Source of the DNA: a virus | Virus record (IMG/VR): IMGVR_UViG_3300045988_124153 | Length of the DNA stretch: 64,000 nt | Strand: one strand, 5' to 3' | Shown here: positions 10,081-61,350 of the stretch, one piece after another | How positions within the stretch are numbered: position 1 is the stretch's first letter | Layout: each line of letters opens with the position of its first letter | Position numbers and translations under genes: made by a program | Notes under the pieces: generated by a model | What the model saw: only the letters and a program-made list of their open reading frames with translations | What the model was told of the DNA's origin: nothing | Databases searched by the model: none

Positions 10081-10089
10081 TGGGGGGGG
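10081..10089. repeat. G9 homopolymer between an SD-like GGAG and a 57-aa GC-rich small ORF (10083-10256, MGGGIMRVYYQ...)
   Basis: Nine consecutive G in an AT-rich intergenic context; the tract gives GGG codons after the first ATG, and a second in-frame ATG lies 15 nt downstream. Confidence 0.5.
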
Positions 10090-12655
10090 GATCATGAGGG
10101 TGTATTATCAGAAAGAACACCAAAGAATTACAAATAATACTGATTCAGGTCAACGGCTGATAGTGACGGACGCCACAGGAGACAGGTGGGGTAAAGTGCG
10201 AAGAGCTCCGGTTCAGGGGAGACGCGGGCTGCATCACATGGCGTAAGGTTACAGTAGATGAAATTATTGAACATTTTAAAAGAAGATAATTATGGGATAT
10301 ATATGTACAAGATGTGGTGGAACAAAGGTTGCTTGTGAAGCCATAGTAAATCCGAATACCAGAGAAATAATAGATTATTTTGATGGATCTTTCGCGCATG
10401 CTATTTGCGGGGATTGTGAAAATGAGGTAATAATATCTAACGTTGAAGAAGTCAAACATGAAATTGATTTAAGATTTCATGAATTTGTAGAAAGAACAGG
10501 TAAGGAGCCTGAATACGTAGAATGTCAGATTGTATGGAAGGAGACAGGAGACGATAAAAGAGCGACAATCAAACTATCGCTGAGTATCAACGATGATGAT
10601 AATGATGATGTTTTTTATTATTGTAATGGGATAGAATCATTTAAGCAACTTGCTGAATACGGGATGGGAGAATTTATCGTAACATTTTGTTGGAGTTTCT
10701 TTTAAGAAATACATTCAGTTATCATTTTTTAATAACATATCTTATGAAAGCACAAGAAGAATATGCCCATGAAATTGACGAAATCGTTCGCCGGGATGTA
10801 GAGAGCTACCAGAGTGACTGGTTTATAATCGACAAGGAGATATTTATGCAGCCAGAGAATAAGAACAAGGCATTTATTTTGGGAACAAGAAAGACCGGGT
10901 GCGATATGATCGTACTTGGAGGTACTAATTGCAGCGGATCCAATATGGATTGGCTTTTCGGTTGCCTTGGCAACCGAAAACTTCTATGTATGCCAGCCAG
11001 TATCTTTCTATAAATCACAACAAGAAATCCAGAAAGTAAATCCGCTTTATGCTTTCAAGGTGGCCACTGCTTATTTTAGAGAACAAGGGAAGGTTCCGGT
11101 ATTTGAAGATAGTAACTGTAGATTAATAAAACTATGAGCATAAAAGTAATAAGATACAGGTTGCCATCTTGTTGGGCTTGTCCGTTAATCAATGATGATT
11201 ACACTGGATTAACGGATGAAGAATGTGAGGAAATCCATAAAATACAAGATATGGAAAGATTGAATTTTGAAACATTGTTTCGTATCGTAAGATGGGATTA
11301 CAACCGTTGCTTTAAGGATGAATCACTGGACAAGGATTTGTTCGTAGAAAAATACGGACGGGTAATGGGTGAACATTATTATAACAAGTTTGTCCATGAA
11401 TTTGACGGAAATATCCTGAAGATGGTTGGTTACTTCAGAGGTTCCGAAAAAGATGGGCAAGTCTTCTGCGATATGATAACAGAACGTATTGAAAAATACG
11501 AAAAGAGAATGTCATATGATAAAGGTAAGTTAAACAATTAAAAAGATATTTATATGAACAATTCAATGGTCGCTCACTTGTGGGCTCATGAACAAGAAGA
11601 ATCAGCATCAGGGAGCAATTTCTTCTTTGAAGGTACAAGTATTTATTCTTATGGGCATCACTTTGAAGTCGGGAGAATAGTAAAAAACAAACAAGGGAAG
11701 AAAGCATACCTGATAAATGAAGATTATTATTCTGTTACCACGAGCAAACATCAATGCTATGTTCGTAATGCGATACCAACTTGGGCAATGGTTTTCAGTG
11801 TAGGGGATAATATATCGGATACTGGTAATATGAGGTTTGTTGCCAGCAAACTGGAATCAATTAAGAAGTCTATTGAAAAATACAAAAGAGCTAAAACAGA
11901 ATTATCTTATACAGATATTTGGGGCGCTTTTGGGAATATGATGGATTACATTCAGTTCTTTAACATGGGGACTGCTAAGAGTATCCTTAAAAAGAGTGCT
12001 AATGATTGGCTTGGAACCAATCATGAATTATCCAAGAGCGGAGATAGTATCAAGCGTAAGCACGTACATGAATTAAAACGCATCTTTCAAATTTTATTAG
12101 ATCATCAAGGATTAAAAGTGTTAGGGACCGTAAATGTGATTGTTGATGAAGTTTGCGGGGAAGGTACATGGATTAAGTATTCAGAAAGATCTGAAAGATG
12201 GAGAAAGGGTGAGGAAGAAAGAGAAAGAATAAAATTAGAGAGATTAAGAAAGGAAGAAGAAGCCCGTTACAAGGATTTTGATGAAAAACTGGAAGAGTGG
12301 AAGTCAGGAGAAATCAATTTCTTGAATACACCTTTCTATATTCCTGGTGAAAAACCTAACGCCTGGATTCGTATAAAAGGAAATATTATTGAGACAAGTA
12401 AACAGATAAAGATTGGAATAGCAGAAGCCAGAAAACTGTGGCGGGCCGTGTCGGAAATGCACCGGGGCGCCGAGTTTCGGCACGGTCTGGTGGAGGATGT
12501 CACCGGCCACCAGTGGAGTCTAAATCGGTACGAAAACGATTTGTTAACCGCTGGATGCCACCGGATTGCATATAGCGAGATGGAAAGTATTGCGAAACAA
12601 CTGGGATGGGCGTAAGTAACCCATCCTGTTTTATAACAATTAAAAACGAAAAGAT

Positions 12656-21000: not shown

Positions 21001-23400
21001 TATATGGGTAGAATATACGGAGCCTGAACAAAGAGGTAGATTGTTTAATTTAATAAATAAAAAGAAATGAAAACAGTTTTTGATTTAAGCAGCGATGAGA
21101 TTGTGGCATTGACAGACGAAGAGATAAGTCTGTATATAGACAAAGAGCTTGCTGGTAAGGGTATTCCAATTGAAGCTAAAAATTGGAATATAAAGAACGA
21201 AAAGGAAGTTGTGTACCCGGATTGCGGGGTTCCGATATTTGTCATTAAAGACATAGGTGTAGGATTTAGAAAGATAGAGGACGCTACAGAGGTGGCGAAT
21301 TTACTGGTCAGGTCCAGGGCTTTTAAAGTGAATTCAAAGTATTTAAACCGATCTTATGAGAGGTTAAACGTCATAAACGAGGGCGTCGTGCCGGCAGTAG
21401 AGGGTTGCGTAGGATACACCAATGAAGAATTTGAAAGAGTTAACAAAGAAAACAATGATCCTGAATCAGAAAAAATAGGATCATTTAATAAGACGGTAGA
21501 GGAAGCCAACAACATAAGAAGCCGAGTGTTGAAATACGTGGACAAGATAAAACAGGAGCGTGCGTACAACATCGACCTTTGCATGACTTTCGAGAGATAT
21601 ATTGAGATAGCAGATAAAGATGCGGAGCGGGCTATGGCTTTCTTGAAAGAAGCCTACCCGTTTAATGAAGAAACAGAAGTCTTTATCAGGAAAAGATACA
21701 ATATGTCTATCAGTGTTGACCCGGAAGAAATTAATTTACATTAAATCATTTTGTTTCTTATTAAGCAACAAAAGACATATCTTTGTCCGAAAAGTAAGAA
21801 ACATGAAAGAGGAAGAAGAAAAGATTAAAGAGGCTATGGCTGAAGCCTTGATACATTTAGAAGGTTGCAAATATTTTGTGGTCACGATAGTAAACGAAGA
21901 AGAATGTAGGTTTGATATGAGTCAGCGTATGTCTCCTCGTCAACTGGCTTTGGTTATAAAAGGTGTATTATCAAATAATAATATGATGATGATGGATGTA
22001 CTACAATGGTGCTCAGCCAGGCTTCAAACAGAAATAGAAAAAGGAAAGAAATCAACTAATTAAATATTAATGCAATGAATCGCTGGTTTGAAATTACGGT
22101 AAAAGCCGAGATTGATAATATCGAGAACGGCAAAAAAAAGAAAGTAACTGAAAAGTATTTAGTGGATGCCTTGTCTTACACAGAGGCAGAATCAAGATCG
22201 TTGGAGATCTTCAAGGATTTGTACAATTCTTTCGAGGTTGTAAAAATTAATCCTATTAAAGTGTCGGAAATCTTCTTCAACGGAGAAGCTGAGTACTGGT
22301 ATAAGTGTAAGGTGAATTACATTACACTGGATGAAAAGAAAGGTAAAGAAAAGAAAACTCCATGCTATATGTATATCCAGGCCGGCAATCCTAAGGATGC
22401 CGAAGCTGTGTTGACTAAAGGTATGCAGGGTACGTTAGGAGACTGGAATTGCGAGTCTATTGTGGAAACGAAAATCATTGAAGTGTTTAAATACGATCTT
22501 CAGAAGGGAGCTGAAAAATTAGGCGAGAAGAAGAGTGAAGAGTAAGGCTGATGTAGTTTCCAACATAGCGCTTGTTGTGGCGATAATATCATTGCTTTCA
22601 GCAGGCGCTTTCCTTCTGATAGTGATTAAGACAGACGAGGTATCTAAATTGTTAATGAACGTACCTTATCTACTGGCTTCAGCGGGATTGTTCTTTTCAA
22701 TAATATCATTATTATTCGAATGGAAAGCAAGGAAAAGAAGCTATACGTCTGCGAACGATGTGGACGAAAAGTGATGATAAGAAGTCATGGCTTATGCCAG
22801 GCTTGCAGGAGCAAAGAGTTGACTCCGAAGAAAAAAAACAGAATTACATCCATTAAAAACAGCAGCAAGAAGAAAAAGTTAGAGAACCCGGATTTATCCG
22901 GGTTTTTTCGTCTTATGTTGGAGGAGTTGAGTACTATTCGAATGTCTATGACTGGTAAAGCTATTCATTTTCCTACAGTATGTAACGTCTGTCACATACT
23001 TCCGAAAAGGTTATATAAGTCGGTTGCCACTTGCAGGGATAATATAGTTTTCCTTCATGAATCAGAGCATACGGTATTCGACATGTATCTTGACCGGATG
23101 GAATTTGATAAACTTGAAACAGAATTTCCTTTTGTGTGGAAGTATGCGGTAAAGAAGGTGCTGGATATGGAAAGCAGGGGAATGATTAAAGAAAGAGGTA
23201 GATTAATTATTGAAATAATTGACAGATATGAGAAAACTTTATAAAATAAGAATAGAAGCTGACGATGAAACTATCTTTTATGCTCACATACAGAGAGAAA
23301 GTTATGGTAAGGATATAGCTATCGCAGTGAAAGATAGAGATAAAGATGAAGTGGAAACAGTGTTACATTGTATTAAAGAAGAATTGATTAGAGGAAGATC

Positions 23401-34418: not shown

Positions 34419-35284
34419 AATACGAGGACGTTCAAAAGTTAAGAACAAAATACCGGCAAGATCCGGAAGTTATAAACGTAGAATACATGAGAGACGTTGC
34501 TGTAAGATGTGGGAATTTCAAGAAAGCATTTGAACTTCAGGAGAAGCTGGAGGATATATGGTTTAACTACTTAAAGGGAGTCCAATGAAAGAAGATCTAA
34601 TATGTGGAGTAGCGATCCTTTTGTATTTAGTTTTATTATACTTGCTCACGACAGCTTTCATAAAAACAGGTAGAGCAGTAGATCGTTATAAGATGAAGAA
34701 GAAAACTGACAAAATCAAAGTAGGTCAAAGATACGAACATAAGAACTACTTTGAGGATCCATTTGAAAGAGGCAAGCATGTGATTAAGATATTAGACATA
34801 AAAGAAGGGTACGTTCTATATGAGTACGAAGAAAAACCATATATACGTTCTTCTGTGAGTCTTGAAGATATTGTTAAAAAATACATTTTAATTACTGATG
34901 TTAAACACAAGTAAGTCATGAAAAAAGAAGTCACAATCAAGGAAGATATGGCTGTGTTTTATAAAAATACAGGAAAAGAACTATGGATTTATAACGGACT
35001 TTTCAGAAACAAGGTGTTGTCTATAAAAAAAGATAAAGCCATTATCATGTGTGAAACTGATGCTGAATATGCTGTACTGATAGAAGATAATCAGTTTATT
35101 GCCGTAGCAAAAAACATGGATTATGATTACTGCTGCGCATTCACATTAGGTAATGCCGAGGCTTATGGGGATCGTATGGGCATATCGTGCAGTGTATGCT
35201 TGCTTGAAGATAACGAAGATAAAGCAAGGGAGATGTTGAAAGAGGCGATAATAGAACTTTCAAAAAACAGTAAAATAGATTGCG

Positions 35285-37162: not shown

Positions 37163-37897
37163 ATGAAAACAAATGTTACAATGGTATCAAAAGACCGAGA
37201 ATTATTTGGCGTAATAATTAAGCAGGACACTAAAACTTCGTTTATGTCCTTAACAGACCTTCAGGAAGCCTATACGAAGAAGAGGGTTGAGATGGGGTGG
37301 AATGAAAAGAGAATAGAGAATATCCTATCTAATAAGGAGAGTGCGGAACGTGTTTACTATATCCTTGAAAAACAAGGATATAAGATAGAATCAGGATTTC
37401 CTGGTTTTATACAATCTGTTGAAAAAGAGTCACTTATAAAAGTGATGAAAAAAATGGGAGCTTATAAGACAATGGGTAGAGGAGAGAATAGGAGAACTAT
37501 GTGTAATCCATATATATGGGTGCTTGTAGCTATGGAACTAAACCCTATGTTGTATGCTGAGGTTGTTACGTGGTTAACAGATAAGCTTATCTTAAACCGA
37601 ATAGAGGCAGGTGATAAATACAATGTCTTGTCAAGAGCTATATCAAGATTTCCGGATGCCGATTACTCCAAGATGGCTAAAGGCTTAAATTGGATTGTAT
37701 TTAATGAGCATGAAAGCATGATAAGAAATAGGGCTACACAGGAGCAGTTGAAAGAACTTGAAACCCTACAGTCTAATCTTGCATTCTGCATAGAGATGGG
37801 AACCATCTCTTCTTTCTCTAATTTAATGAACATGATGAGATCTATATATGTAAAGAAATGGGGAGAAGAGGCTGTAACTTCTAAAAACGTAAAATAA
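37163..37897 (+). CDS. KilA-N (APSES-type) DNA-binding domain protein; the track start 37130 overlaps the terminator, so ATG 37163 or 37181 is more likely
   Basis: The N-terminal 100 aa resemble the KilA-N pattern (FGVIIKQDTKTSFMSLTDL ... NPYIWVLVAMELNPMLYAEVVTWL). Confidence 0.45.
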   Translation: MKTNVTMVSKDRELFGVIIKQDTKTSFMSLTDLQEAYTKKRVEMGWNEKRIENILSNKESAERVYYILEKQGYKIESGFPGFIQSVEKESLIKVMKKMGAYKTMGRGENRRTMCNPYIWVLVAMELNPMLYAEVVTWLTDKLILNRIEAGDKYNVLSRAISRFPDADYSKMAKGLNWIVFNEHESMIRNRATQEQLKELETLQSNLAFCIEMGTISSFSNLMNMMRSIYVKKWGEEAVTSKNVK

Positions 37898-40898: not shown

Positions 40899-42083
40899 TA
40901 TAAGGTTGAATCTAATGAATAAAATGAATAATTTTAATAACATTAACTACGCAGCAAAAGCCAGAAGAGCTTATTTGATAAACAATTTCGATAAGATTCT
41001 TAACAGCCTCAACGCGCTTCATTCGACGGTTGAAACCATGACGTTGTTCGTAAACGACCAGGCTTATAATTACATTCTTAAGCTGAAGGAAGTGATTAAG
41101 GGTGGTCCTATGTACAAACATAATGTCAAACGATTTTTGAATGATATGGACAAAGAGATAAAGAGGTACAATGCTTCTATCTACTACATAAATAAAGAGC
41201 GTAGTGAGGTTATAGCTGATATAACACAAGCGATGGAAGATTGCCTCATGCCATACATAGACGACCTGGCCGGCGCTATAAGGGCAGCCGTGTGGTCGAG
41301 GGGTGTGTCCGAGGAGCGGACGGAAGCGGCGGTACTGTCCCTAATCGTATCCTCTTTGGCCACGACATCAGGCAGACTTATTTCAGGTGGATATCAGATC
41401 ATGAAAGAAATGGGTGGAGGCTGGGGTGGTAATCCATTTACGTTTATGAGCATTGATAAGATAAGACACTTATCTACATCATTATCTGATGCTATTACCG
41501 GTGGAGAAATAGCTCTTGAGGAAAAAGAAGCCAATGACATAACTAAGGCAATGGATGTTTTTATTGAGAAAATGTCTGATTCAGATATTGTTGATAAGGT
41601 GATCAGCATACTCGAAGAGGCAGAATCTAAAAACAAGGAGGAGAGATCGTGAATTATTTAGATGGGTATGTAGAAGAGATTCTTTCCGAGCCGTACTATG
41701 ATGATTACGGTTCTGGTATTTTTAGGTGGTGGGTGAAAGTGTCTTACATTTGCGAAGGCATAGGAGCTGTCACTACCTTAATGTTTGATACGAGAGAAGA
41801 AGCAGAGGCAGTAAAACCAGGTTACAAATTTTTATGTTGAAAATAATATGAAGTATTTTATTTTATTGATGACATTAGTATTATCATCATGTTCAAATAA
41901 TCATCAGGTTAATGACGGATGGGTTATATATGATCTACGTCCTTTACAGGGTGGACGTGTGATGTATTATGCTGAAGACGAAAGAATTTCAATATTTAAA
42001 CATAATAGAATCATAAAATTCGTTGGATACCAAGGGGAATACAATATCGGAGATTCTATTAAGATCTTGACATACTCCCATCG

Positions 42084-43235
42084 CTAAAGCAAATGGGATT
42101 CTTGGATACAAACGCAAGAAACCCCGACATTACTATCGTTGGAATTACTCTTACTCTCCAATTCGGAAATGCCCTTCCGAAGTATATTACGGGATGCAAG
42201 AACATCACGGTCGTTGACCGCGCCGCACGACGGGCATACCCACGTGCGGTCGCGTAACGACAGTCCTTTATTAATGCAGCCACATTCACAAGTTTTGGAA
42301 GAAGGATACCATTTGTCAATCTTATGTACTATCACTCCATACTTTGAAGCAATATATGTAAGTTTGTCAATAAAAGAAGAATGACTGAGATCAGAAACTT
42401 TCTTTCCCCACAAACGTTTCATTCCTTCAATGTTTAGATCTTCAATAAAAATATAATCATATTGTTTACACAAATCATGAGCTAATTTCCATTGAAAGTC
42501 TGATCGAAGATTGTTTATTTTACGATACGCTTGTTGTAGTTCAAACAGTCTCCTTCTTTTATTATTGGATCCTTTCTTTGCATTAGAAAACCGTTTGTTT
42601 AGTTTTCTAATCTTGTTTTGATATTGTTTGAGGAATAATGGAGAATCGATTTTGCTACCATCACTTTTAGTTAGATAAGTTTTCAGACCAAAATCCAATC
42701 CGATAGATGCACCATCATGTGTCTTTCTATAAGAGTTTACAGGATTATGGTCTGTAACTATAATCAAACTAAAACGGGAACAGGTTTCTCTAACTATTCT
42801 AATTTGTTTAACATTACCTTCATAAGGTCTACTGTATGAAAACTTAAAATGTTTCTTTCCTTTGTTAATTGTTAGACAATTTCCATTCAGGGTAAACCCT
42901 CCTTGTTTGAATACAAAAGAATTGAATTTCTCCGGTGATTTAAACTTAGGAGGTCGTTTAGCCAACTTCTTGAAGAAGCGATTGTATGCTGAATCTAACC
43001 TTTGAATAATTTCTTGTGTTGTTTGGGAATGAAGAAGATTTCTCTTAATTCTTTTAGAGAAATGTTTTTGCATCTTGCCAACTGAGATATATTTCCCAAA
43101 CAGTTTGTAATACCTACGTTGTAGAGCTAAAGCATGATTCCATACAAAACAGCATTCGCGAAGTATCTTGACAAGATACTTCGTTTTCTTTGAATAATAT
43201 ATGTTATATTTGTATGAAATCATTTTTAACCACAT
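42084..43235 (-). CDS. tnpB: TnpB RNA-guided endonuclease (IS200/IS605 family, IS1341-like): RuvC-I IGLDFGLKT, RuvC-II IFIEDLNIEG, Zn ribbon CECGC...CPSCG, RuvC-III NDRDVLASRNI
   Basis: All catalytic and Zn motifs present. Confidence 0.8.
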   Translation of the reverse strand: MWLKMISYKYNIYYSKKTKYLVKILRECCFVWNHALALQRRYYKLFGKYISVGKMQKHFSKRIKRNLLHSQTTQEIIQRLDSAYNRFFKKLAKRPPKFKSPEKFNSFVFKQGGFTLNGNCLTINKGKKHFKFSYSRPYEGNVKQIRIVRETCSRFSLIIVTDHNPVNSYRKTHDGASIGLDFGLKTYLTKSDGSKIDSPLFLKQYQNKIRKLNKRFSNAKKGSNNKRRRLFELQQAYRKINNLRSDFQWKLAHDLCKQYDYIFIEDLNIEGMKRLWGKKVSDLSHSSFIDKLTYIASKYGVIVHKIDKWYPSSKTCECGCINKGLSLRDRTWVCPSCGAVNDRDVLASRNILRKGISELESKSNSNDSNVGVSCVCIQESHLL

Positions 43236-43321
43236 TTATGATACAAATATAATAATAACTTTTTGGCATATATCAGAATCAATTATTTAAAAATACATAT
43301 ATGAATAAAAGAATCATTGAT

Positions 43322-43341
43322 CCCCTGCTTAAAAGCAGGGG
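43322..43341. mobile_element. IS200/IS605-type subterminal hairpin (CCCCTGC-TTAAAA-GCAGGGG) about 90 nt upstream of the tnpB(-) start: a putative IS left end
   Basis: Perfect 7-bp GC-rich hairpin in an AT-rich divergent intergenic region. Confidence 0.45.
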
Positions 43342-43949
43342 ATTTGTTAAAGATCGTAAAAGTAAAATAATATGAAAAATAATTTAAAACTCGTATGTCC
43401 AAAATGTGGCACCCCTCACCAGCCTCATTCTCCGCACACGATGGATGCAGATGGATTTGAAAGGTGTGAGATAAGAACTGTCATGGAAGACAGGGGATGG
43501 TGCTACGAATGCTCTTTTTGGCAAAACTTGTACGACAAGCACAAAGACGATCCTGGATGGGTTAGGATAGATGGTGAAAGCTGGGTGCTTAAGCCTATGG
43601 TGGAAAACGTACCGAGCGGATGGAACAGCCTTGGATGTGGTGGAAGAAAAATGTATATCAATATCGAAGGGAAAGGCATTGTTACATCAAATAACTGCTG
43701 GTGTCAAGGTGATGTTTCGGACGCATTCAAGGATCTTATGCCTGATAATGCTACTTGGGCTACGAAGGAGGAATTTGACAAAGCTCCTGTAGTAGGACAT
43801 ATCATAGAAGGTATTGGTTTAGTTTTCACAGATAGGGGAGGTCATGAAGTTAATGCTTAGAAACTTATTTCATGTTCTGCTTATACAAGAAAAGATGGTA
43901 ACTACAACAATCCCCAACCATACAATAGGCGTACGGTTGGGGATTGTTG

Positions 43950-44687
43950 TCATATCGTAAAATTAAGTGTTTTTTCTAATATCAGATATTCAGTATGAAC
44001 TTTACTTCCGCCATCATTTATCAAGTCCAAATTAATATAAGCTGTATATGATACATGATGATCACCAGGAGCAAGACGTTTCATATCTGATAAGAACATA
44101 GAATTTAGACCTTGGCCAGACCATGATTCTGGATATGGCAAAGGTTTAAAGTCGGCGTCTGTACATCTTACAACCCAAGTAAGATTAGGATCTGCCCTAA
44201 CTATTCTATCATGAGGTCCATCAATTACAAGATCTGGCATCTCATATTGGTAACTATCATAATTAAGGACAATAGGATCACCAAAGTTTACACCGTATAT
44301 AGCAGCAGGTGGAGTAAAGCTTGTTATTAAAAAGGTTCTATTAATCCTATTGGTTGTTCTTAGCGTAAACTCATCAGGTGCTATCACACTTACTATAAAT
44401 CCATAATGAGGAGAGGTTGTTAAAGCAATAGCAAGAACCACCGAATCCTGTTCAAGCAATTCCTCTGTCGTATCAACCCGACTATCGATCTCTTGCCTAT
44501 CTTCCATTGGAACACCGCCTTGGACACTTATGGAATCCAGCCGTTCTTTTTTAGACAGAAAGATAAATTGCCCGCCCTGTGGAATGGTGCCTACTTTCTT
44601 TCCTTCTACGATTACCCCCCCCTATACAATCGCTAACTATCTTATACTCATATAGTTTAGCATTATTTTCAAATCTTCTTCTCATAA
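43950..44687 (-). CDS. Tail-fibre-region protein beginning MRRRFENNAKLYEY...; it reads through a G10 tract (on + strand C10 at 44615-44624, encoding GGG) into the track ORF 43950-44507
   Basis: In the printed sequence the frame is open from ATG 44687 to the stop at 43950; the N-terminal MRRRF matches the internal MRRRF start of the neighbouring gene. The ORF track starts only at 44507, implying a different tract length. Confidence 0.4.
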
Positions 44688-44691
44688 TTTC

Positions 44692-45393
44692 ATAAAATTA
44701 ATTCGGTAAAGGGGCGGACATAACGTCGATTACTCCTTGTACTTGTATCCAAATGATCTCCTTGGATGTTTATATCATAATACCACGAATAGGTAAATTG
44801 TGTAGATTGAGTGGATGTCCACATTTTATTACTCATTATCGTACCTCCTACCATTAAAAGGCATTCGTTTATTTCATTCGCATACAATGATATCAAAAAA
44901 ACTCTCCGGCGCCACCTACATATCCATTTTGACCATTTTTAAATAAATAGCTATTAGCTTTATTAAAAGCGTAATTTTCATTACTGGTATCATATTCAAG
45001 ATACGCATTCTGATTTTCACGCCCCCAATAATCCTTTTTAACGGTCTCCATATAAGAACTATTTTGTGCAAATACATTGTCTACTATTCCATTCTTACCC
45101 CAACTAAATGTGCCAATATATTCGGTGGCTATAACAAAACACACTTTATCTACAAGAGCTATTCCATTGCATAGATCATTGGAATATCCTTTATTAGACC
45201 AATTTTCTTTCGTATATAATCCTCCGTCTACATGTTGGATGTATATGCCTTTATTGATTATAAGCGAGGGATTTACCCCCATCCCTATTTGAAATCTTCG
45301 TCTCATGATTTTTGTTTGCAAGATAGCAATAATTGACAACATAAAAGAAACCGGTTCCCTATCATCTCTGACTGAGAACCGGTAAGAAAACAA
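44692..45393 (-). CDS. DUF1566/FISUMP-like carbohydrate-binding (tail-fibre-like) protein, split over two frames (track ORFs 44893-45393 and 44690-44896); C-terminal motif WTSTQ...YSWYYDI...RRYVRP
   Basis: The YWSST...AW...VRCV-like signature sits in the second piece. The printed sequence places the stop at 44692-44694; the track's 44690 and its W-containing translation cannot be reproduced exactly from the print. Confidence 0.4.
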
Positions 45394-45519
45394 TTTCAGA
45401 AAAAATTTAACCTACATAATCTTTCAAGTAAGAACAAAAAACGTACAATCTACTCTTTGACGATGCTAATATAGCATATTGGAATCATACAAAAACAATG
45501 CAAGTCCGATATTCTTCGT

Positions 45520-48500
45520 CTACTTGTAGCTAACATCATCGTCCCCTTCCGAATCAGGAGTAGCGCCGATGAAGAACATCATTGACTTGTTGTTCGTCTG
45601 CTGCCACCAATTATAGGCGCGCGCTACGTCTTCCGGCGTCTTGATATTATACCATTGTTTGATAAACGTCTGTTTGGCGAGTTGCCTAAATAACTTAAAC
45701 TCTCCTTTGTATGTGCCGGATGTTACTTTATCAAGTGAGTAATTCCTAAGATCAGTAAGATCCTTCAACTTCCGCCCCATGACAAACGGGTCGTTAATGA
45801 TATCTACAACGTTAAGCTCCATAATAAACGGCATCTGTGAAGCTATTTCGTTTATGGTTCTGAATCCGACATAGGATCCAAATTGAGTAAGCCAACTTTC
45901 TTCGTTTTCATCATCATCACGCCATCCGGCAAGAAGCATGGATACGGCTTGCATGATAAGGAACGTGCCGGCATAGACACTGAGACGTTTTATATTGGTT
46001 TTCTCTACCTCATTCATATTGTCTTTATTTTCGTTCCAGGCATCTATGATGTTTTTCATACCAGACTCGGAAGCTAAGCTAAATGTTTTGGCTATCATAT
46101 TCTTTAACGTAATTGACAGTCCTTCCTCTTCTTGCATTGTCTGGAAATTGAAGCCACGTCTTTTCCACAGACGTTGAGCCGCCAGCACCAACCATCCTCG
46201 GTGGGCGGTCATGAACCTGGCTATCCAGTTGCGCGATGCGGCAGTTCGGTTTTCTTCATTCAAAGATCCGTTACATATCTGCGACAAGCTACGAACTTGA
46301 TTTCTGGTTATAGCCATCTGGGTTTCAACTTCCTCAACAGTAACACCCGATCCTGGCTTTACAACCACCTTCCCATCCACGACGTCTACCATACTCCATA
46401 AAGTACGATCTTTTAATGCATTCCATTCTCTTTTTATGGTACTCTGTTCTTTATTACGTTCTTTTTCCATCTTGAAATCTTGGAACGTGTAGAACCGGCC
46501 TTTGTAATAACGAACATTGTCCATAGTAGCAATCATAACCTGCGGATCAAGAGGGTAGTTCAGGATTTCCATAAAAGCATACATAGGCGAACGCATTAAG
46601 GTCCTGGCCGCTCTATTGTATCCGGCACCATACATACGATTTCGGATATTGAATATCCCCATTCTCTCACCTATGACATATAATTTGCTTTTCCTATCTA
46701 TGTCTCCGGTTTCTGCTATACAAGATGGCGCAAGACGTGAAAACTCAGCCGATGCGTATTTAAGGGAGTCTTTGCTTATATACTGTCCTACGGCAGATTC
46801 CATGATGAGGTTGATATGACCTGTCAGGGCGCCGGTAGCTGCCACAAACGGAGACAGTGCCAAGTTCATAACCGACATAAATCTTTCAACAGCCATCATA
46901 ATTCTTGTAAGGTCTACCGTATATCCTCCGATGTTCACCGTAAGTTTTTTGGTGTTCATCCTAATGCCATAATAATGATCGTTGAAGAAGTCCCTGAACA
47001 TCTGATATGCTTGGGTTGCTTCAGCCTTCTTACCACCTTCAAATTGTTTGTTCAGCAACATCTGCTCCAGTCCTTGGGCAAGCTCTATAGACTTCTGCTT
47101 TTCATTGTATAACGATGACTGCATCATAAGCATCGAATAAGAGTAACCAAAATCGTGAGATACGTCATCTTGGTTCTCTAATTCATATATGTAGTATTTA
47201 GGTATGGACCGAACCCTATCTTCCGGATCATATACCTCACCCTGACGTGTTTTACCATACAGGGAGTCATCTACGCGGTCAAGACATAAGTCGGATACGA
47301 AGTTCCTGACCGTACTTTTAAGGTTAATACCTAACCCTTCTATACGTTCTATATCTTGTTTGGATATCTGTGGAATAGCATACAGATTAGGGCTCTGCTC
47401 TTTATATAGATCAAGGGATTGTCTTTTTATTTCCTTGAGTTTTTGAATCATATTCCACTGCTCTACGTTTTTAGTAGCGACCTCATTACCATCAGCATCA
47501 TATTTGATACCAAAGTCATTGAGATACGATTCATCACGATACAGGCTCTTCTTGGGCATACGATGACCATACCCGTGGTCTTTTACATAATCAGGATTAC
47601 GACCGCTATTTTCGGCTTCAGATTCAGCCACCCATGCCCTTGCAGGGTCGAAAGACAGGTACGATATGTCCATGCCATAATCTTGGGTGGATGTACCGTT
47701 TTGTACGTCCTTAACCATCTGCGCCACATCTATCTCACCTCGACCGATTTTGTCGATCATAGCCGCATATCCAGTAGGCGCCATGCGTTTATAGTACGAA
47801 AAGACCTGGCTCCTGGCAAATTCATTAACAATAGCATTAGCCTCTTCTATACCTGATTCTCTTGTGTTATTTAAAAACAAGCTGGCCATTTTAGCATTGA
47901 CGGCATTCCTAAAATCTCTACCGTCTAATTCTTTGCTTATTCCAAGCTTTTCTGACAAGTAGTTGGTTTCAGATACGGTAAACAGATACCGGTTATCAAC
48001 AGCTTTGAATAACTTATCCCTTAAGGCTTGAATCCTTTTTGCTTTCTTCGCCGTAGTATGACGTTGTACGAACTTCCATTCCACTTCCTTGGAGTCAGCA
48101 AGAGCATTTAAATAAGACTGATTTACTTCGTTTTCAGCCTTACTGCTTTTAGTAAGGTACTTATCAATATCTTCAAGACCCACCATCTTAGCATAATCTA
48201 TTAAGATAGCGTAATCGGCTTCAATAGCTTCAGATGCGGCCCTAAAAGCATCTCTTTCAGATGAGGTAAATGTCGCTTCGTTAATTTCTCCGATATCAGC
48301 CACATCGCGATTGTTTCCGATTATTTCCTTGATAATGGCCTTATTTTTTTCTATATCTTTTACAATCGAGTCCACGTCAGTCGCATCTCTATCACTTGTC
48401 GTAGAACTAATGATGTCTTGTGCCATTTTAAGATACGAAGCCTTGTTATTTGATTCGGTACGCGCCGATTGTTCTGATTCTACGTCATTCCAAAACCGAT

Positions 48501-51500
48501 CGTTGAATGACAGGTGCCCCCCCAACATAAGTGTCTTCAGCGCAGCTTCTCCTCCTGACTCGTTCTGAATCGTTCTCAATTTTTGCAAAAACGATTCTGA
48601 TACGACATTAGTGACATTATTTGATTCCTTTCTCCAAACTTCATTTATAGCTTGTATTTCTTTGGCCATCTTAAGTTGGTCGCCGGTTTTTTCCACTCTC
48701 CTGGTTCCTACATATATGTATTCTGAAGCTGCTTCTTTACGTTGTTTACGAAGCAGTCCTTCTTCTTCGTAATTGCTGCTTTTAAAATAGGAGGCCTCAT
48801 CAAAATTACCACCGCTATCAATAAAAGGCTGCCTCAATATCCGTTTTTGCCTGGATAGAGCATTAAGATATTCTTTGGTTGTTTGAGAAACTGGATGCCC
48901 TAATTCTTCTTCAGCCTTTTTGTATATGGATTCCATTCTTGTGGCATAACTTTCGCTAAATTCCAGTTCCGAATTTTCAGCATCCCACTTTTCCATCTGT
49001 TCCGTATAGATCTTTTCCTGCTCGATGGTAAAAATATCGGTATTAACTCTATCAGACGATGGTTTGAATTTAGCGTTTTCAGTAACCGTATTTCCATCCT
49101 TGTCAACTACTTCTCTTTTAAATACGTAATTACGGTTATTGTCAACCACATCATTGATTTCTTCTTCTGATATCTCTATGTTCATGGCAGTCGCAAACGC
49201 TCGCATCTGCGCCAGCTTCTTATTACGATCGTATTTAGCCATATCAAGAGCACTACGAAGGTAATTAGAAGTTTTGCCGTCTACTTTCTGAAGCAGTTTT
49301 TCAAATTCAGATTTGTTAAAACCATGCTTTTTAGCATATGCCAGGAAGTCGGATATGGCGGGCTGGGCATTCACCATCGCATTGTAATTGTCTTTGGCAA
49401 TCATAGCTCCAAGAGCGTTATTGAACGGACTGGAAGAATGCTCTAATATACCAAACCACCTACTTATCCAAGAAACATCATGTTGAACTTTGTCAAAAAA
49501 TTCTTTTACTCTCTTTACCTTATTTGCCGGCACATGAAGTTCGTTCATTAACTTATCAAGCAACGTACTTTCATCAAGGTCTTGTACTGATTTAATATCA
49601 GACTGAATACCATTGATGTCGGCAATGACGGTATTGATCCTATTTGTATAATCCTGCTTTTCACGTTCATCAAATTCGGTACTTCTGTTACGGATATATC
49701 CTCGAAGATCGTTCATGATCGGAAGAACCTGATTGTTGATAATATCTACGTTCTTTCGATCATTGGTATTGAAGTGAAGCTTACCGTCTTTGGTATCACC
49801 ATGAAGGATGGTGTTCACCACATTGCTTAAGTATCTGACCTGAGCTTCGGCTGTGGAGATCATGCTGTTCATGGCAGCCGCCATCTCATTCTTGTCTATC
49901 TCGGTCTCTACTTTATTTATCTTATCTTCTATGGTCTTAAGCTGAGCAAGGGTCATAGACGTAGTTACAGCCCTATCAGAGCTTATCTGACGTAAGTCTC
50001 TTAATGTTTTTCTTAGCGATCTGATCTTAGACTCAAGAAACTTGTTCTTGTTCATAGAAGAAAGGGAGTATAATGTAAAGTCATTATCCTTTAACAGAGA
50101 AGTGTCAAATCCTTTATCTATGTCAGTAATGGCAAGATCACGAATGTTTTTAATAACGTTATTCAAATCTTGTCTTTGGGTTGATAAAGCTGATTTAAGC
50201 CAGCTTACTATTCCAGAGAAAAGCCGCCGGACGCGCCCCAGGAAGGAGGTGGGCTCTACCGGCGCCTGTGCTGTGCCGGTCTGCATCTCCCTGGCGAGGA
50301 TCTTTCCAAGAATTTCTCTCCTAACAGCATTATCAAGCTCAGCTCCTTCATATACTTTACCGTATGTATTATAATACTGACCTGCATATTGGTTCCACTC
50401 TTCCGTACCTTCCACATCTTGCAGAACAGCCTCAACAGCATTCTGATCTCTGTATGCCTCTACAAGGAAGTGGGCTGTTTCTTCTACTAAATCAGATAAA
50501 GTAGCATCTTCACCAACTGCTATTACGTTATTGGCAATATCCGCCAATGCCTTAGCAGAAGGTTCATGCCCGTATTTGGTTTGGTACTTCTCTATATAGT
50601 CGGTCATACCTATGACGCTAACGCCAAGAGTTTTCAGTATCTCGACAATAGAATTTCGTTGGTCACGTTCCTGCCTGCTATAATCCGATACGATCTTAGC
50701 TTTAGTATCAGCATAAAGATCGTTGTCTTCTAATATGAATGAAACTACAAGCGCATCAAAATGATCGTACTTGGCGTCCAATTCATTGTATCTTCCTGAC
50801 TTAAGATCGTTCTTTATCTGCTCCCTGCTAACCCTTTCCGTTCCTCCGGTGGCGAGCCTCATAGTCACCTTACTGTTATCCAACGAGCTTATGGTTATCA
50901 TACCTTGGTCGTTCATGGAAACATCGGAACCAAAATGATTACGGAGCTCGGTGTAGGATAAGGCTGAATTGAAAAGTCTAATTTGTCCTGTATGACCTTC
51001 TCCTGTAAGATAATAGCTTCTTGTTTCAGGATTGAATATCTTAGATCCTGACAAAAGACCTTTCTTTATAAGGTAGTTAATTATACCACCTTTTGTTGAT
51101 AAAGAAGTAGAAGCAGACGCGGTCATGACCGGTATAAAAGACTTGGGATTATTAAGAACATACTTTCCAGCTTTGTAAGTAATGTCTGCCACGCCATCCA
51201 CGGTAGATTCTTGAACGGTGCCTGATAAGAATCCTATTCTAATATCATTCCCGCCAGAGCGAAGAGCTTCTCCGTAATCTTCAAATAATTGACTACGATC
51301 GTTCATGAAAAACAAACGAGGCTCTCCGGTCTGATACGTTACACCCACAGGATTAGAATCTGTCTCTGGTAGCTCTTCTGGGCTAAATATCTTAAGACCG
51401 TCTTTTATAACCATATAATTAACACCCTTATCCTGTACCATAGATACGGGAGTAAAGTCCGAAGATATAGCATCTTGTAGATACTGCCCGGCGTCTATTC

Positions 51501-51942
51501 CCGGTCCTTCCGGTACGGAAATACTTGACGGGACCATAGCATCCACCAACATAATATTATTACCCAGATTTTGGCTGTAGAATCCAAAGCCCGATTCTTG
51601 GATTTCATAAGGTGCATCTGATTTTGACACAAGAACAGGGTTACTCATCTTAGAAGCCTTATCCAGCACCCTTTCTCTATAGGCCTCCGGAATAAGATCG
51701 ATGTCGGATTTTACCTTATTATAAGCCGGTTTGTTGATAGGCACTCTCTTTCTCCAGTCGCCAAAAGCCTTTAAGAACTTATTAGAAAATACGGTTTTAA
51801 AAACAGTAGTAGCCCGTTCCCTATTCTCCATAAGAGGAATAGATGCTATTTTATCAAACAACATAGACCTGTCCCCTGATCTGGTAGAGACAGAAACAAC
51901 TTTCTTTTTATTATCTCTTTTAATAATACACGTTGATGTCAT
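45520..51942 (-). CDS. Giant 2140-aa protein, virion-associated or structural candidate; no catalytic motif recognised
   Basis: Single uninterrupted ORF in the late, minus-strand module upstream of tail-fibre-like genes; no D.DGD-type RNA-polymerase motif found by eye. Confidence 0.6.
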   Translation of the reverse strand: MTSTCIIKRDNKKKVVSVSTRSGDRSMLFDKIASIPLMENRERATTVFKTVFSNKFLKAFGDWRKRVPINKPAYNKVKSDIDLIPEAYRERVLDKASKMSNPVLVSKSDAPYEIQESGFGFYSQNLGNNIMLVDAMVPSSISVPEGPGIDAGQYLQDAISSDFTPVSMVQDKGVNYMVIKDGLKIFSPEELPETDSNPVGVTYQTGEPRLFFMNDRSQLFEDYGEALRSGGNDIRIGFLSGTVQESTVDGVADITYKAGKYVLNNPKSFIPVMTASASTSLSTKGGIINYLIKKGLLSGSKIFNPETRSYYLTGEGHTGQIRLFNSALSYTELRNHFGSDVSMNDQGMITISSLDNSKVTMRLATGGTERVSREQIKNDLKSGRYNELDAKYDHFDALVVSFILEDNDLYADTKAKIVSDYSRQERDQRNSIVEILKTLGVSVIGMTDYIEKYQTKYGHEPSAKALADIANNVIAVGEDATLSDLVEETAHFLVEAYRDQNAVEAVLQDVEGTEEWNQYAGQYYNTYGKVYEGAELDNAVRREILGKILAREMQTGTAQAPVEPTSFLGRVRRLFSGIVSWLKSALSTQRQDLNNVIKNIRDLAITDIDKGFDTSLLKDNDFTLYSLSSMNKNKFLESKIRSLRKTLRDLRQISSDRAVTTSMTLAQLKTIEDKINKVETEIDKNEMAAAMNSMISTAEAQVRYLSNVVNTILHGDTKDGKLHFNTNDRKNVDIINNQVLPIMNDLRGYIRNRSTEFDEREKQDYTNRINTVIADINGIQSDIKSVQDLDESTLLDKLMNELHVPANKVKRVKEFFDKVQHDVSWISRWFGILEHSSSPFNNALGAMIAKDNYNAMVNAQPAISDFLAYAKKHGFNKSEFEKLLQKVDGKTSNYLRSALDMAKYDRNKKLAQMRAFATAMNIEISEEEINDVVDNNRNYVFKREVVDKDGNTVTENAKFKPSSDRVNTDIFTIEQEKIYTEQMEKWDAENSELEFSESYATRMESIYKKAEEELGHPVSQTTKEYLNALSRQKRILRQPFIDSGGNFDEASYFKSSNYEEEGLLRKQRKEAASEYIYVGTRRVEKTGDQLKMAKEIQAINEVWRKESNNVTNVVSESFLQKLRTIQNESGGEAALKTLMLGGHLSFNDRFWNDVESEQSARTESNNKASYLKMAQDIISSTTSDRDATDVDSIVKDIEKNKAIIKEIIGNNRDVADIGEINEATFTSSERDAFRAASEAIEADYAILIDYAKMVGLEDIDKYLTKSSKAENEVNQSYLNALADSKEVEWKFVQRHTTAKKAKRIQALRDKLFKAVDNRYLFTVSETNYLSEKLGISKELDGRDFRNAVNAKMASLFLNNTRESGIEEANAIVNEFARSQVFSYYKRMAPTGYAAMIDKIGRGEIDVAQMVKDVQNGTSTQDYGMDISYLSFDPARAWVAESEAENSGRNPDYVKDHGYGHRMPKKSLYRDESYLNDFGIKYDADGNEVATKNVEQWNMIQKLKEIKRQSLDLYKEQSPNLYAIPQISKQDIERIEGLGINLKSTVRNFVSDLCLDRVDDSLYGKTRQGEVYDPEDRVRSIPKYYIYELENQDDVSHDFGYSYSMLMMQSSLYNEKQKSIELAQGLEQMLLNKQFEGGKKAEATQAYQMFRDFFNDHYYGIRMNTKKLTVNIGGYTVDLTRIMMAVERFMSVMNLALSPFVAATGALTGHINLIMESAVGQYISKDSLKYASAEFSRLAPSCIAETGDIDRKSKLYVIGERMGIFNIRNRMYGAGYNRAARTLMRSPMYAFMEILNYPLDPQVMIATMDNVRYYKGRFYTFQDFKMEKERNKEQSTIKREWNALKDRTLWSMVDVVDGKVVVKPGSGVTVEEVETQMAITRNQVRSLSQICNGSLNEENRTAASRNWIARFMTAHRGWLVLAAQRLWKRRGFNFQTMQEEEGLSITLKNMIAKTFSLASESGMKNIIDAWNENKDNMNEVEKTNIKRLSVYAGTFLIMQAVSMLLAGWRDDDENEESWLTQFGSYVGFRTINEIASQMPFIMELNVVDIINDPFVMGRKLKDLTDLRNYSLDKVTSGTYKGEFKLFRQLAKQTFIKQWYNIKTPEDVARAYNWWQQTNNKSMMFFIGATPDSEGDDDVSYK

Positions 51943-53470: not shown

Positions 53471-54704
53471 TTACTTTAATATAATCGGATGCCTCTTCCC
53501 TCTAATGAGTTTAAACTTTTTGCGTGAAACATCTTTTGAATTTTCTCCGTTGAAATCCCTGATATTGAAACTCCCTGATTTTCTCCTTCCATAAACAAAT
53601 AATATTTTATTGTTATACAACACTTTATCAAACAATCTAAAACCGAAAACCTCAAAAGGAGCTTGATTGTTTTTCTTCTTTCCTCCTTTTAAAATTTTCA
53701 TTTTATGTATTTGCCTGTTATGTCTACGAATTAAACGTTTTAAATATTGACGTTCGATTCGTTTCGCATTAATGTTCATAGAAATGACAAACGCGTCGGA
53801 TGTATGGGATTTTTTCAATACCGTATTTAATCCGATTATGTTTCGTAATGTAACCAAACGTCATAGAAACTCTGTCGTATCTGGATCTCAGTTCTTCATA
53901 CAACTTCCATTTCATGATCCCCATTACGGCCGCGTCGCGGAGCGACGATCCCCGTTTGATCTTCAAATCTATATTACCTTTATGGTATTCTTTGTGACAA
54001 GTTTCACATAAGGTAATAAGATTAGAAGGGGAATCACCTCCCGTTTTTCGGGATTCAAGATGATGGACATTAAGGATCTTATCTTTTGACTTCCCTTTAC
54101 AATACTGACATTTATGCCCATCCCTTGCTAAAACATACTCCCTTGTGTTCCAAAATCCAAGTTGATCACCTTCCTGGTATTCTTTACCTAATATTTCAGG
54201 ATTCTTAATCTTTTGAGTATCAAATTGAGCTACTTCAATAACAATACGAGATATTGGTAATATAGAACATACATTGTCAATAACACGAATATGGGCGTCT
54301 ATTTTGTACTTCACCGAAGGTGCTACCCATCCAGGACGCTTACTTTTTATTCTGTTATCGAAACGAGGTTTTCTATACCTCAATCTATTCCGTCTTGTTC
54401 TTCGTAGCTCCCTTCTGGTAGACAAAAGATCTACGATATCATTTCTAAGGATAACTTCACTACTGTAAAGTTCTTTGCTTTTCGTCGTAGCTGATAAACC
54501 AACATGTTTAGTACCAGCATCAACGCCTAACACAATTTCCTGTTTGTAATCAGATGTTACGTACGTTAATCGGATGGTAAACGGACATAGGTTCACAACG
54601 ACTGCCTTTTTATCTTTAAGCAGTCTCCTAACCTTACCATGCCTCGTTGTTGGCATCATAGGTTTACCATCTATGTCTTGTACGTACACCATATCTACAA
54701 ACAT
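53471..54704 (-). CDS. iscB: IscB-like RNA-guided nuclease: PLMP (DGKPMMPT), RuvC-I (LGVDAGTKHVGLS), Arg-rich bridge helix (RRELRRTRRNRLRYR), RuvC-II (IVIEVAQFD), HNH (CQYC...HH...GGD...LC..CH), RuvC-III (KKSHTSDAFVI) and a TI-like C-terminus; a +1 frame change near 53838-53843 separates the 311-aa and 128-aa track ORFs
   Basis: All IscB hallmark motifs in order across two frames; the junction maps between ...FGYITK and IIGLNTVLKKSH. Confidence 0.75.
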
Positions 54705-60465: not shown

Positions 60466-61350
60466 TCAAGAAAATTTACCATATTTTAAAAATACATTTT
60501 TAAGTTTTCCTTTTATGCCATTGAGGGTCACTTCATATCCGGATCCTGTCATGTAGATAGTTTGTTGATTAACCCTTTCGCCGGAATACTTATCTACAAA
60601 ATATGATCTATATACACCATATCCTTTAGCTACAACATTACTATACAACTCCCATTTGCCAAGACCGTTCCTAAACATAAACTTAGCTTCTTCAAGAAAT
60701 GAACGTAAATTCTTTTCAGCGATGATAACACCATTCTGTTCTAACTTTTTGGCAATATCACGAATCAGCCACATATTGTTATGGTCTACTTTCCTAAAAG
60801 ACTCGGCAAATTCTACATCAGGCTTATGCTCTTCTATTGTTTTCAAGGCTTGTTGCTTCTCTGCCTCTGCCTGAGATTTTTCAGCTATAGCTCTCTGAGC
60901 AGCTTCATACTGATCAGCCCAGGCTCTTGCTGCATCTGCCGGATTAGAAAAGTCAGGGACCAAAATTCCCTTTCCACCGGAACTTGTTTTATATTCTCCT
61001 GTTTTACGAATAGAAGGAAGAACCTCAGATGTTACCCATTTCTTAAATCTCTTAGCAGACTCTAATTTTGAAGATAATATAAGAGAATATAAACCAGATT
61101 CATTAATTATTCTTATACTATCTATATATCTGGTTTTCAATATAGATCGTTTTACGCCCCATTGATTATCAGATACTTGAAAAAGCATAGAATCATCATC
61201 ATCTACATGTCTTTTTACCGCATCTTTAGCATTTATATATCCAAGAGATTTAGCCACATCTGACGCCACAAACCAAACATCTCCTTTTGGATCTACAATA
61301 ATTCTAAGCTCTCCAAAATCCGAACTTTCAAAAACAGAAACTTTATCCAT
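60466..61350 (-). CDS. Bro-N domain protein (phage antirepressor-like) with a KilA-C/ORF6C-like C-terminal region
   Basis: N-terminal pattern F..LRI.....G..WFVA.DVA..LGY.N...A.....D......G....IINE.GLY.LI..S....A..FK.WV...VLP.IRK.G.Y matches Bro-N. Confidence 0.75.
   Translation of the reverse strand: MDKVSVFESSDFGELRIIVDPKGDVWFVASDVAKSLGYINAKDAVKRHVDDDDSMLFQVSDNQWGVKRSILKTRYIDSIRIINESGLYSLILSSKLESAKRFKKWVTSEVLPSIRKTGEYKTSSGGKGILVPDFSNPADAARAWADQYEAAQRAIAEKSQAEAEKQQALKTIEEHKPDVEFAESFRKVDHNNMWLIRDIAKKLEQNGVIIAEKNLRSFLEEAKFMFRNGLGKWELYSNVVAKGYGVYRSYFVDKYSGERVNQQTIYMTGSGYEVTLNGIKGKLKNVFLKYGKFS

Follow-up and report, generated by a model that had tools for sequence, protein, structure and literature searches.

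The 64,000-nucleotide stretch of viral DNA analysed here (IMG/VR record IMGVR_UViG_3300045988_124153, in the following called the window) carries two adjacent genes on its minus strand, gene 1 (upstream, ATG at 45306) and gene 2 (downstream, ATG at 44685), both of which are interrupted at a run of identical bases. Among natural relatives of the window, these runs differ in length, and the length determines whether the gene is in frame (ON) or out of frame (OFF). Probably, the two genes are contingency loci, that is, on/off switches driven by replication slippage, located in dispensable and probably host-interacting genes of a crAss-like phage. The comparison of related genomes demonstrates, at the level of sequence, a hypermutable frameshift switch in what appear to be dispensable genes; that this switch has been selected as a bet-hedging device is plausible but unproven. 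The only GenBank phage that matches the window is csAssE-Sib (OR575929.1; human gut, 151 kb), with ~95% identity. Its annotation lists a muzzle protein, a tail lysozyme and giant structural proteins, and it is therefore a crAss-like phage; the window accordingly is part of a crAss-like human-gut phage of ~150 kb. The exact strain of the window is present in the Illumina gut metagenome run ERR321612.

The tract in gene 2 was determined from the plus strand, where positions 44610-44629 read gattaCCCCCCCCtatacaa and contain a run of C8, corresponding to G8 on the coding strand. An earlier note on this DNA had described a C10 run at 44615-44624; its start position was right, and the run ends at 44622. 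Likewise, the ATG placed at 44687 is located at 44685, and the frame beginning with MRRRFENN, which was thought to pass through the tract into the open reading frame (ORF) starting at 44507 and to encode 246 amino acids (aa), ends with G8 at position 44551 after 44 aa. A recomputed list of ORFs is identical to the ORF track of the window (43950-44507, 185 aa; 44690-44896, 68 aa, with W residues; 44893-45393). Because the tract is C8 and not C10, sequence and ORF track agree. The supposed conflict between them, with two nucleotides extra at one site and two fewer at another, is explained by counting two bases too many in the C run and by a misreading around position 44820, and heterogeneity between sequence versions is ruled out. 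The frame of the 185-aa ORF is open from the tract onwards (GGVIVEGKKVGT...), with 39 stop-free codons preceding the ATG at 44507. Replacing G8 by G7 or G10 creates a single gene 2 ORF of 244 or 245 aa, respectively; written in locked form, the ON version of the tract is GGAGGTGGCG. C8/G8 words occur three times in the window compared to 0.59 expected, and 6 of 100 shuffled sequences did as well, which means that the presence of such a tract alone is only marginally beyond chance. The gene 2 tract is built of GGG, the rarest Gly codon (13.5% of Gly codons), and the probability of using GGG three times is 0.0025.

An exact-flank scan of IMG/VR yielded 25 related contigs, and a protein-anchored scan added 80 further loci with 10-kb flanks. 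After de-duplication, 40 genomes (window included) contained a pure gene 2 tract together with the 3' flank of the window type. The tract was G10 in 18, G9 in 15 and G8 in 7 of them. Of these lengths, only G10 is in frame with this flank, and OFF is thus the consensus state in 22 of the 40 genomes; G9 and G8 leave stubs of 24 and 44 aa, respectively. When the tract was reset, a gene 2 ORF of 243-247 aa was restored in every G8 and G9 genome. Interrupted tracts without a G run longer than seven (G5AG4, G5TG4, G7AGG) were always ON, and those that retain a G8 run (L048, L076, L077) were OFF. In a sister allele whose 3' flank differs (…G9-TGTTATG…), G9 is the in-frame length and G8 puts the gene out of frame. 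Pure tracts were 8-10 bases long and did not exceed the in-frame length; the exception to this range is L099 (G6), which has an altered 3' flank.

This length polymorphism exists among natural genomes that are otherwise 94-99% identical. A neighbour-joining tree was calculated from 1.3 kb of flanking sequence (39 taxa, mean distance 2.4%), and the changes in tract length were mapped onto it. The Fitch minimum was 17 changes compared to 17.1 for shuffled labels, i.e. tract length carried no phylogenetic signal, and contigs that are only 0.2-0.3% apart in the flanking sequence differed between G8 and G10. Compared with the sequence around it, the tract is therefore changing at a much higher rate.

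That gene 1 is split over two frames had been recognized correctly before; the break is at a T7 run, whereas the gene is intact, with 205 aa, in csAssE-Sib (T8) and in 80 IMG/VR loci. In the window, it resumes in the -1 frame as (L)ISLYANEINECLL...YVRPFTELIL, down to position 44690. The T run was T7 in 3, T8 in 18 and T9 in 4 contigs (window included); these contigs had been retrieved via the flanks of gene 2, and the counts are therefore unbiased with respect to gene 1. In protein databases, many truncated versions of gene 1 (113-224 aa) are found beside intact ones of 205-209 aa. All four ON/OFF combinations of genes 1 and 2 occur among the relatives, and the state of the window is OFF/OFF (gene 2 G8, gene 1 T7). 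Two short runs in the leader vary as well: at 45400-45405, lengths of 5, 6, 7 and 8 were found in 2, 65, 2 and 2 relatives, and at 45436-45441, lengths of 5, 6 and 7 in 1, 47 and 27 relatives. The features of the locus are listed in Table 1.

Table 1. Features of the locus, their positions in the window, and the alleles found at the position of gene 2
Feature	Position	Strand	Description
G8 tract (C8 on +)	44615..44622	-	codons 22-24 of gene 2; frameshift switch, OFF in window
gene 2, 5' part	44551..44685	-	MRRRFENNAKLYEYKIVSDCIGGG, then out-of-frame tail NRRRKESRHHSTGRAIYLSV and stop; 44 aa in all
gene 2, remainder in other frame	43950..44618	-	222 stop-free codons; ORF track lists only the ATG-started 185 aa, 43950-44507
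gene 1, 5' part	44893..45306	-	MRRRFQIGMGVNP...GGAGEFF, stop; 137 aa; N-terminal two-thirds of 205-aa DUF1566-like protein
T7 tract (A7 on +)	44895..44901	-	~codon 137 of gene 1; T8 in frame, T7 here = OFF
gene 1, 3' part in -1 frame (68 aa)	44690..44896	-	...NEINECLLMVGG...MWTSTQ...YVRPFTELIL; region of lectin-like core motif
G5 tract	45276..45280	-	gene 1, codons 9-11; in-frame length in window; relatives G4, G5, G6, G8, G9, G10
two short A/T runs	45400..45441	-	leader/promoter region upstream of gene 1; length varies among relatives
2140-aa virion structural protein gene	45520..51942	-	phrog_37651, E = 1e-76; control for selection and homopolymer stability
21-bp perfect hairpin	43904..43950	.	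directly after gene 2 stop, between convergent units; dG -35.1 kcal/mol, z = -6.9
gene 2 allele type A			window's own allele
gene 2 allele type A'			87% identical; different tract flank
gene 2 allele type A''			27% identical; GGCGGAACC in place of tract
gene 2-position allele type B			unrelated 149-aa protein

The features typical of contingency loci are thus found together at this locus: a run of at least ~7 bases in an ORF, a frame-changing length polymorphism, an OFF ORF that is otherwise intact, and a tract that mutates faster than its flanks. According to the proposed mechanism, genes 1 and 2 would be non-essential accessory genes whose coding regions contain, or lie close to, hypermutable mononucleotide runs. 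Slipped-strand mispairing during replication of the phage DNA would add or remove single bases in these runs, and the altered run length would shift the ribosome into or out of frame. In gene 2, the switch would be the G8-G10 run at codons 22-25, with G10 yielding the full 245-aa beta-rich protein and G9 or G8 a stub. In gene 1, the G run at codons 9-11 and the T7-T9 run at about codon 137 would act as switches, with T8 yielding the full 205-aa lectin-like protein and T7 or T9 a truncated one. Within one population, switching would be fast and reversible, and it may be maintained as bet-hedging rather than merely tolerated. The phase variation suggested in the earlier note is confirmed in so far as homopolymer length switches both genes across natural populations; the accompanying effect on host range is something we infer.

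An alternative genetic code (TGA = Trp) was considered as a rescue of gene 1 and rejected, as read-through reaches a TAA seven codons on; this code is also disfavoured by the 2140-aa late gene, which is open in the standard code. With regard to the start of gene 1, a different leader (…GCAAAAAAAA(A)ATG…) was observed in eight loci (L040, L047, L049, L050, L064, L078, L083, L092) at about window positions 45307-45330. P0121 (3360 members), which is the largest cluster for gene 1 in the databases, starts with MQKKNEKKISNRGG. This start corresponds to the leader A run plus the MRRRF codons read in another frame, which is brought in-frame by a longer G run. Two tracts may therefore jointly influence which start site is used.

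The protein encoded by the ON version of gene 2 (245 aa) had no match in Pfam, PHROG or NCBIfam. Its homologues, which number 210-244 and in most cases are 245 aa long, are all unnamed proteins of the same phage lineage. A confident AlphaFold model based on 22 sequences (predicted local distance difference test score, pLDDT, 83; predicted template modelling score, pTM, 0.56) is all-beta with several very long hairpins. A Foldseek search with this model retrieved nothing significant from the PDB, where only generic beta-sandwiches were listed, and from BFVD only its own homologue; no structural similarity to solved or predicted folds of receptor-binding proteins (RBPs) or fibres was found. Judged from its sequence and model, the description of the gene 2 product as tail-fibre-like is not supported. 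Moreover, searches of PHROG, Pfam and NCBIfam linked neither gene 1 nor gene 2 by sequence to a known family of tail fibres or RBPs.

For gene 1, the previous assignment as a DUF1566-like adhesin holds as a remote relationship established by profiles and intermediates, whereas the direct match to Pfam is sub-threshold. The match to Lcl_C/DUF1566 (PF07603) has an E-value of 0.07 and a score of 13.9 bits (cut-off 34.9), and is limited to the 68-aa fragment of gene 1 and 5 of 15 homologues; the full 205-aa sequence did not match Pfam. A profile search of 1.84 billion representatives identified 654 relatives. The gene 1 profile matches P0209 at 1e-27; in an overlapping region, P0209 in turn exceeds the cut-off for Lcl_C (1e-10, 42.4 bits). 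With a 40-sequence family profile, the PDB entries 4eps_A (4e-4) and 8q4e_A (HbP1; 5.6e-4) were found, both over the motif G-Y-L-P..GE...YWSST...VR. 8Q4E is cited in the structure paper on the Legionella Lcl/DUF1566 protein, in which the domain is described as C-type-lectin-like and possibly carbohydrate-recognising. The AlphaFold model of gene 1 has a mean pLDDT of 28.8. It is reasonable to regard gene 1 as encoding a remote DUF1566/Lcl_C-like domain of the C-type-lectin-fold class.

In other phages, the gene 1 domain is part of larger proteins. It is located C-terminal to phrog_5302 'tail protein' regions in the large phage proteins P0204 and P0218, and it forms the end of the 2,300-2,400-aa proteins P0215 and P0217, which also carry BspA-type leucine-rich repeats. 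Gene 1 is probably a free-standing copy of a DUF1566-like domain of the glycan-binding type. P0183 is a chimera of the N-terminal module of the downstream gene of the csAssE-Sib type and the lectin-like half of gene 1; the modules have therefore been shuffled. Several aspects of the context are of the tail or RBP type, namely the position in the structural/late module, the exchangeable alleles with a conserved N-terminus, and the related domain on tail proteins elsewhere. The case for a receptor-binding role made by position, allele exchange and conserved N-terminus is circumstantial, and on these grounds the two proteins may act on the host surface.

The position of gene 2 is occupied by exchangeable alleles (window 43950-44685; L001 6417-6866; L046-L105). 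The types A, A', A'' and B all begin with MRRR[FY] and share an N-terminus of ~60 residues or fewer; in the entire window, only genes 1 and 2 begin with MRRRF. In csAssE-Sib, the downstream position contains a different gene of 149 aa that has only the MRRRFEN start in common with gene 2 of the window. The 27%-identical allele has the same length and the same N-terminal ~60 residues, and has kept two GG motifs. Two allele lineages with unlike 3' flanks have both kept the G tract. In the divergent allele, truncating lesions are found at ordinary short runs (A6, G5). Synonymous diversity (pS) is 0.02-0.05 in genes 1 and 2 (43950-45306) compared to 0.13 in the structural gene (45523-49122), which suggests that the alleles have spread recently by recombination or sweeps.

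A more far-reaching version of the proposed switching is possible, and we put it forward tentatively: independent G, T and leader A/T switches would form a combinatorial 'phasotype' system in a two-gene cassette encoding modular lectin-like and beta-sandwich virion appendages. If so, each burst would release virions with differing surface-binding equipment. Such a system would be the phage-side counterpart of capsule phase variation in Bacteroidales and a possible contributor to long-term coexistence of phage and host.

It is less probable, and on balance unlikely, that genes 1 and 2 are accessory 'passengers' under little or no selection, in which homopolymer frameshifts drift up in the absence of any selected switching. 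The ratio of nonsynonymous to synonymous substitution rates (dN/dS) is ~0.84-1.05 for genes 1 and 2 versus 0.02-0.05 for the adjacent structural gene. A value of ~1 is what neutral passengers should show; taken alone, however, it fits either diversifying or relaxed selection. The ratio of nonsynonymous to synonymous changes in gene 2 (2.84 versus a neutral value of 2.45), the OFF consensus in over half of the contigs, the lesions of the divergent allele at ordinary A6 and G5 runs, and the similar variation of unconstrained intergenic runs all agree with neutrality. In contrast, no nonsense codon was found in 46 gene 2 sequences where 3.7 would be expected under neutrality (125 variants; P ~0.03). 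All length variants of gene 2 outside the tract are multiples of three, and 53 genomes contained no out-of-frame indel outside homopolymers. Furthermore, the nonsynonymous changes in gene 2 are clustered and not uniform, the family is old enough to include 27%-identical alleles of the same architecture, the tract consists of the rarest Gly codon and has been retained in two allele lineages, and its pure lengths stay within the narrow range described above. These findings argue against genes that merely decay.

The interpretation as slippage-driven contingency loci has to be weighed against several observations. Tract lengths are known from consensus assemblies alone. The dN/dS of ~1 together with the OFF consensus in 22 of 40 genomes would also fit genes that are simply dispensable, and the shortfall of stop codons, with P ~0.03, is weak evidence. 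Because the divergent allele has lesions at A6 and G5, slippage looks less like a dedicated device than like the general mode of mutation. Variation of a non-coding G run at 10082-10090 shows that a long G run is unstable at any site that tolerates it. Finally, the model of gene 1 has a pLDDT of only ~29, and that of gene 2 matches generic beta-sandwiches only.

A sequencing or assembly artefact, with a true tract that is in-frame everywhere and a variation due to homopolymer errors in short reads, is very improbable. Long G/C runs are indeed error-prone on several platforms, and all lengths were taken from assemblies. However, the lengths of coding runs elsewhere in the same contigs were constant: A8 at 22132 in 76 of 76 related contigs, A8 at 22831 in 32 of 32, A7 at 35025 in 34 of 34, A7 at 37448 in 30 of 30 and, within the 2140-aa gene, T7 at 48344 in 77 of 77 relatives. 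The seven bases at 48517-48523 of the same gene (C7 on the plus strand, G7 on the coding strand) were constant in length in 84 of 84 loci, window included; this site is G7 in 7 of the 84 loci (the window and six relatives) and GGGAGGT in most relatives, and is thus an example of a G run that keeps its frame within an essential gene. In addition, three independent assemblies of ERR321612 (NCBI GCA_900523795.1, ENA ERZ916138 and Logan) all contain G8, T7 and G5. The constancy of the coding runs and the concordance of the three assemblies make an artefact unlikely. All three length classes are common at the consensus level, which an error of ~1% per read cannot produce. Runs located between genes or at gene ends (A9 at 27459-27467, A8 at 28856-28863, T7 at 31127-31133) vary among relatives; length thus varies exactly where a frameshift is tolerated, as is expected for real mutations filtered by selection and not for platform error. 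As a separate observation, the lengths of A runs in the window are distributed non-monotonically, with five runs of A7 versus ten of A8.

The G9 run at 10082-10090, which lies in a non-coding leader and was intended as a stability control of the same base composition, varies as well and therefore cannot separate error from biology. It starts inside an ATG that has AAGGAG in front of it, and a 50-aa ORF (10094-10246) follows shortly downstream. In nine related contigs it was G6 in five, G8 in two, G9 in one and G10 in one; G10 fuses a mini-ORF to the 50-aa ORF, giving 55 aa. The run may be a second, leader-located switch, or merely an unconstrained unstable run.

It is just as improbable that the OFF alleles are still expressed by programmed recoding, i.e. 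by ribosomal frameshifting or by slippage of RNA polymerase on the G or T run: although runs of 8-10 identical bases are able to cause transcriptional slippage and the T7 run of gene 1 ends in ...GAG UUU UUU UGA, where a -1 slip of tRNA-Phe next to the stop would enter the correct frame, recoding sites are normally of fixed length whereas all three frames occur here, G9 and G8 would need different shifts, and in-frame versions exist and are common, so that recoding is not needed.

On/off switching by homopolymers has been described before in a small number of other phages, and a crAss-like phage is added here. In the literature searched, no relevant report of homopolymer switching in crAss-like phages was found, which is not proof of novelty. 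The closest case is found in Campylobacter phages, which carry hypermutable polyG tracts (Sorensen et al. 2021, Cell Rep 35:109214; cited in PMC12823448). There, as in the window, a poly-G run in a phage ORF sets the frame by its length; mixed populations result, and the genes concerned have been connected with host recognition. Switching and phenotype have been shown experimentally for the Campylobacter phages, whereas the evidence presented here is comparative and metagenomic and the gene functions are putative. Unlike those phages, the window belongs to a crAss-like gut phage with a presumable Bacteroidales host, and a T run is also involved. Contingency loci have further been described for T2/T4 and other phages (Gomez, Barrick & Waters 2025, preprint, PMC12633550), in which mononucleotide repeats of at least 6 bases likewise give rise to reversible +/-1 frameshifts by polymerase slippage, interpreted by the authors as bet-hedging. 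Most of those repeats are A runs, for instance in agt and rIIA, and mutant frequencies range from ~1e-4 to 1e-1 within clonal stocks. In contrast, whole natural populations have the alternative lengths as their consensus here, and several tracts in two neighbouring genes are concerned.

The locus also resembles the simple-sequence contingency loci of bacteria, for example the polyG/polyC tracts of Neisseria, Haemophilus and Campylobacter (PMC4965091, PMC5084427). Common to both are a G/C run of at least 7 bases near the 5' end of an ORF, a surface-interaction protein (putative in our case), an ON/OFF state set by the frame, and the combination of independent loci into 'phasotypes'. Different from the bacterial loci, the replicon is that of a lytic-type phage copied by its own polymerase, and the unit of selection is a virion population and not a cell lineage. 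DUF1566 proteins of Bacteroides phages are targets of diversity-generating retroelements (DGRs) tied to tropism (PMC8143477). The DGR-diversified DUF1566/C-type-lectin-fold proteins belong to the same broad domain class as gene 1, are found in gut Bacteroidales phages and undergo accelerated variation. However, DGRs rewrite codons by means of a reverse transcriptase and a template repeat, neither of which is present at this locus, where variation consists of on/off frameshifts and the exchange of whole alleles. The invertible tail-fibre switches Gin of Mu and Cin of P1 (cited in PMC12823448) similarly concern host-interaction modules (putative here) at the end of a late operon, with a conserved N-terminal and a differing C-terminal part. 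Their mechanism is site-specific inversion instead of slippage, and the locus described here showed neither an invertase nor inverted repeats.

crAss-like phages rank with the most abundant human-gut viruses and persist for years beside hosts that phase-vary their capsules. If accessory, probably surface-binding proteins are switched by replication slippage, this would constitute a phage-side bet-hedging mechanism in the crAss-like group. The idea is directly testable with existing public metagenomic reads. In most assemblies, annotation will turn such loci into pseudogenes or split ORFs (22 of the 40 pure-tract contigs are 'broken' in this sense), and pipelines for gut-phage annotation and pangenomes should treat homopolymer breaks as states and not as errors.

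Genes 1 and 2 are the final genes of the leftward late/structural transcription unit and follow directly downstream of the 2140-aa structural gene. The hairpin behind gene 2 is probably a bidirectional terminator that separates gene 2 from the convergent rightward genes; scans for sigma-70 promoters and terminators around the locus gave no result above shuffled sequences. Beyond the hairpin, a ~1.27-kb segment contains a gene of the TnpB / IS605 OrfB type (383 aa; OrfB_IS605 and Cas12f1-like TNB domains; window 42067-43337). At this position, the segment is missing in all 25 first-retrieved related contigs and in csAssE-Sib, and it is present in all three ERR321612 assemblies; it looks like a strain-specific insertion adjoining the locus. 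Two further genes are located within the leftward late region, one for an HNH endonuclease (phrog_119, E = 5e-62) at 53769-54704 and one similar to Ant-type anti-repressors (phrog_130, E = 4e-56) at 60466-61350.

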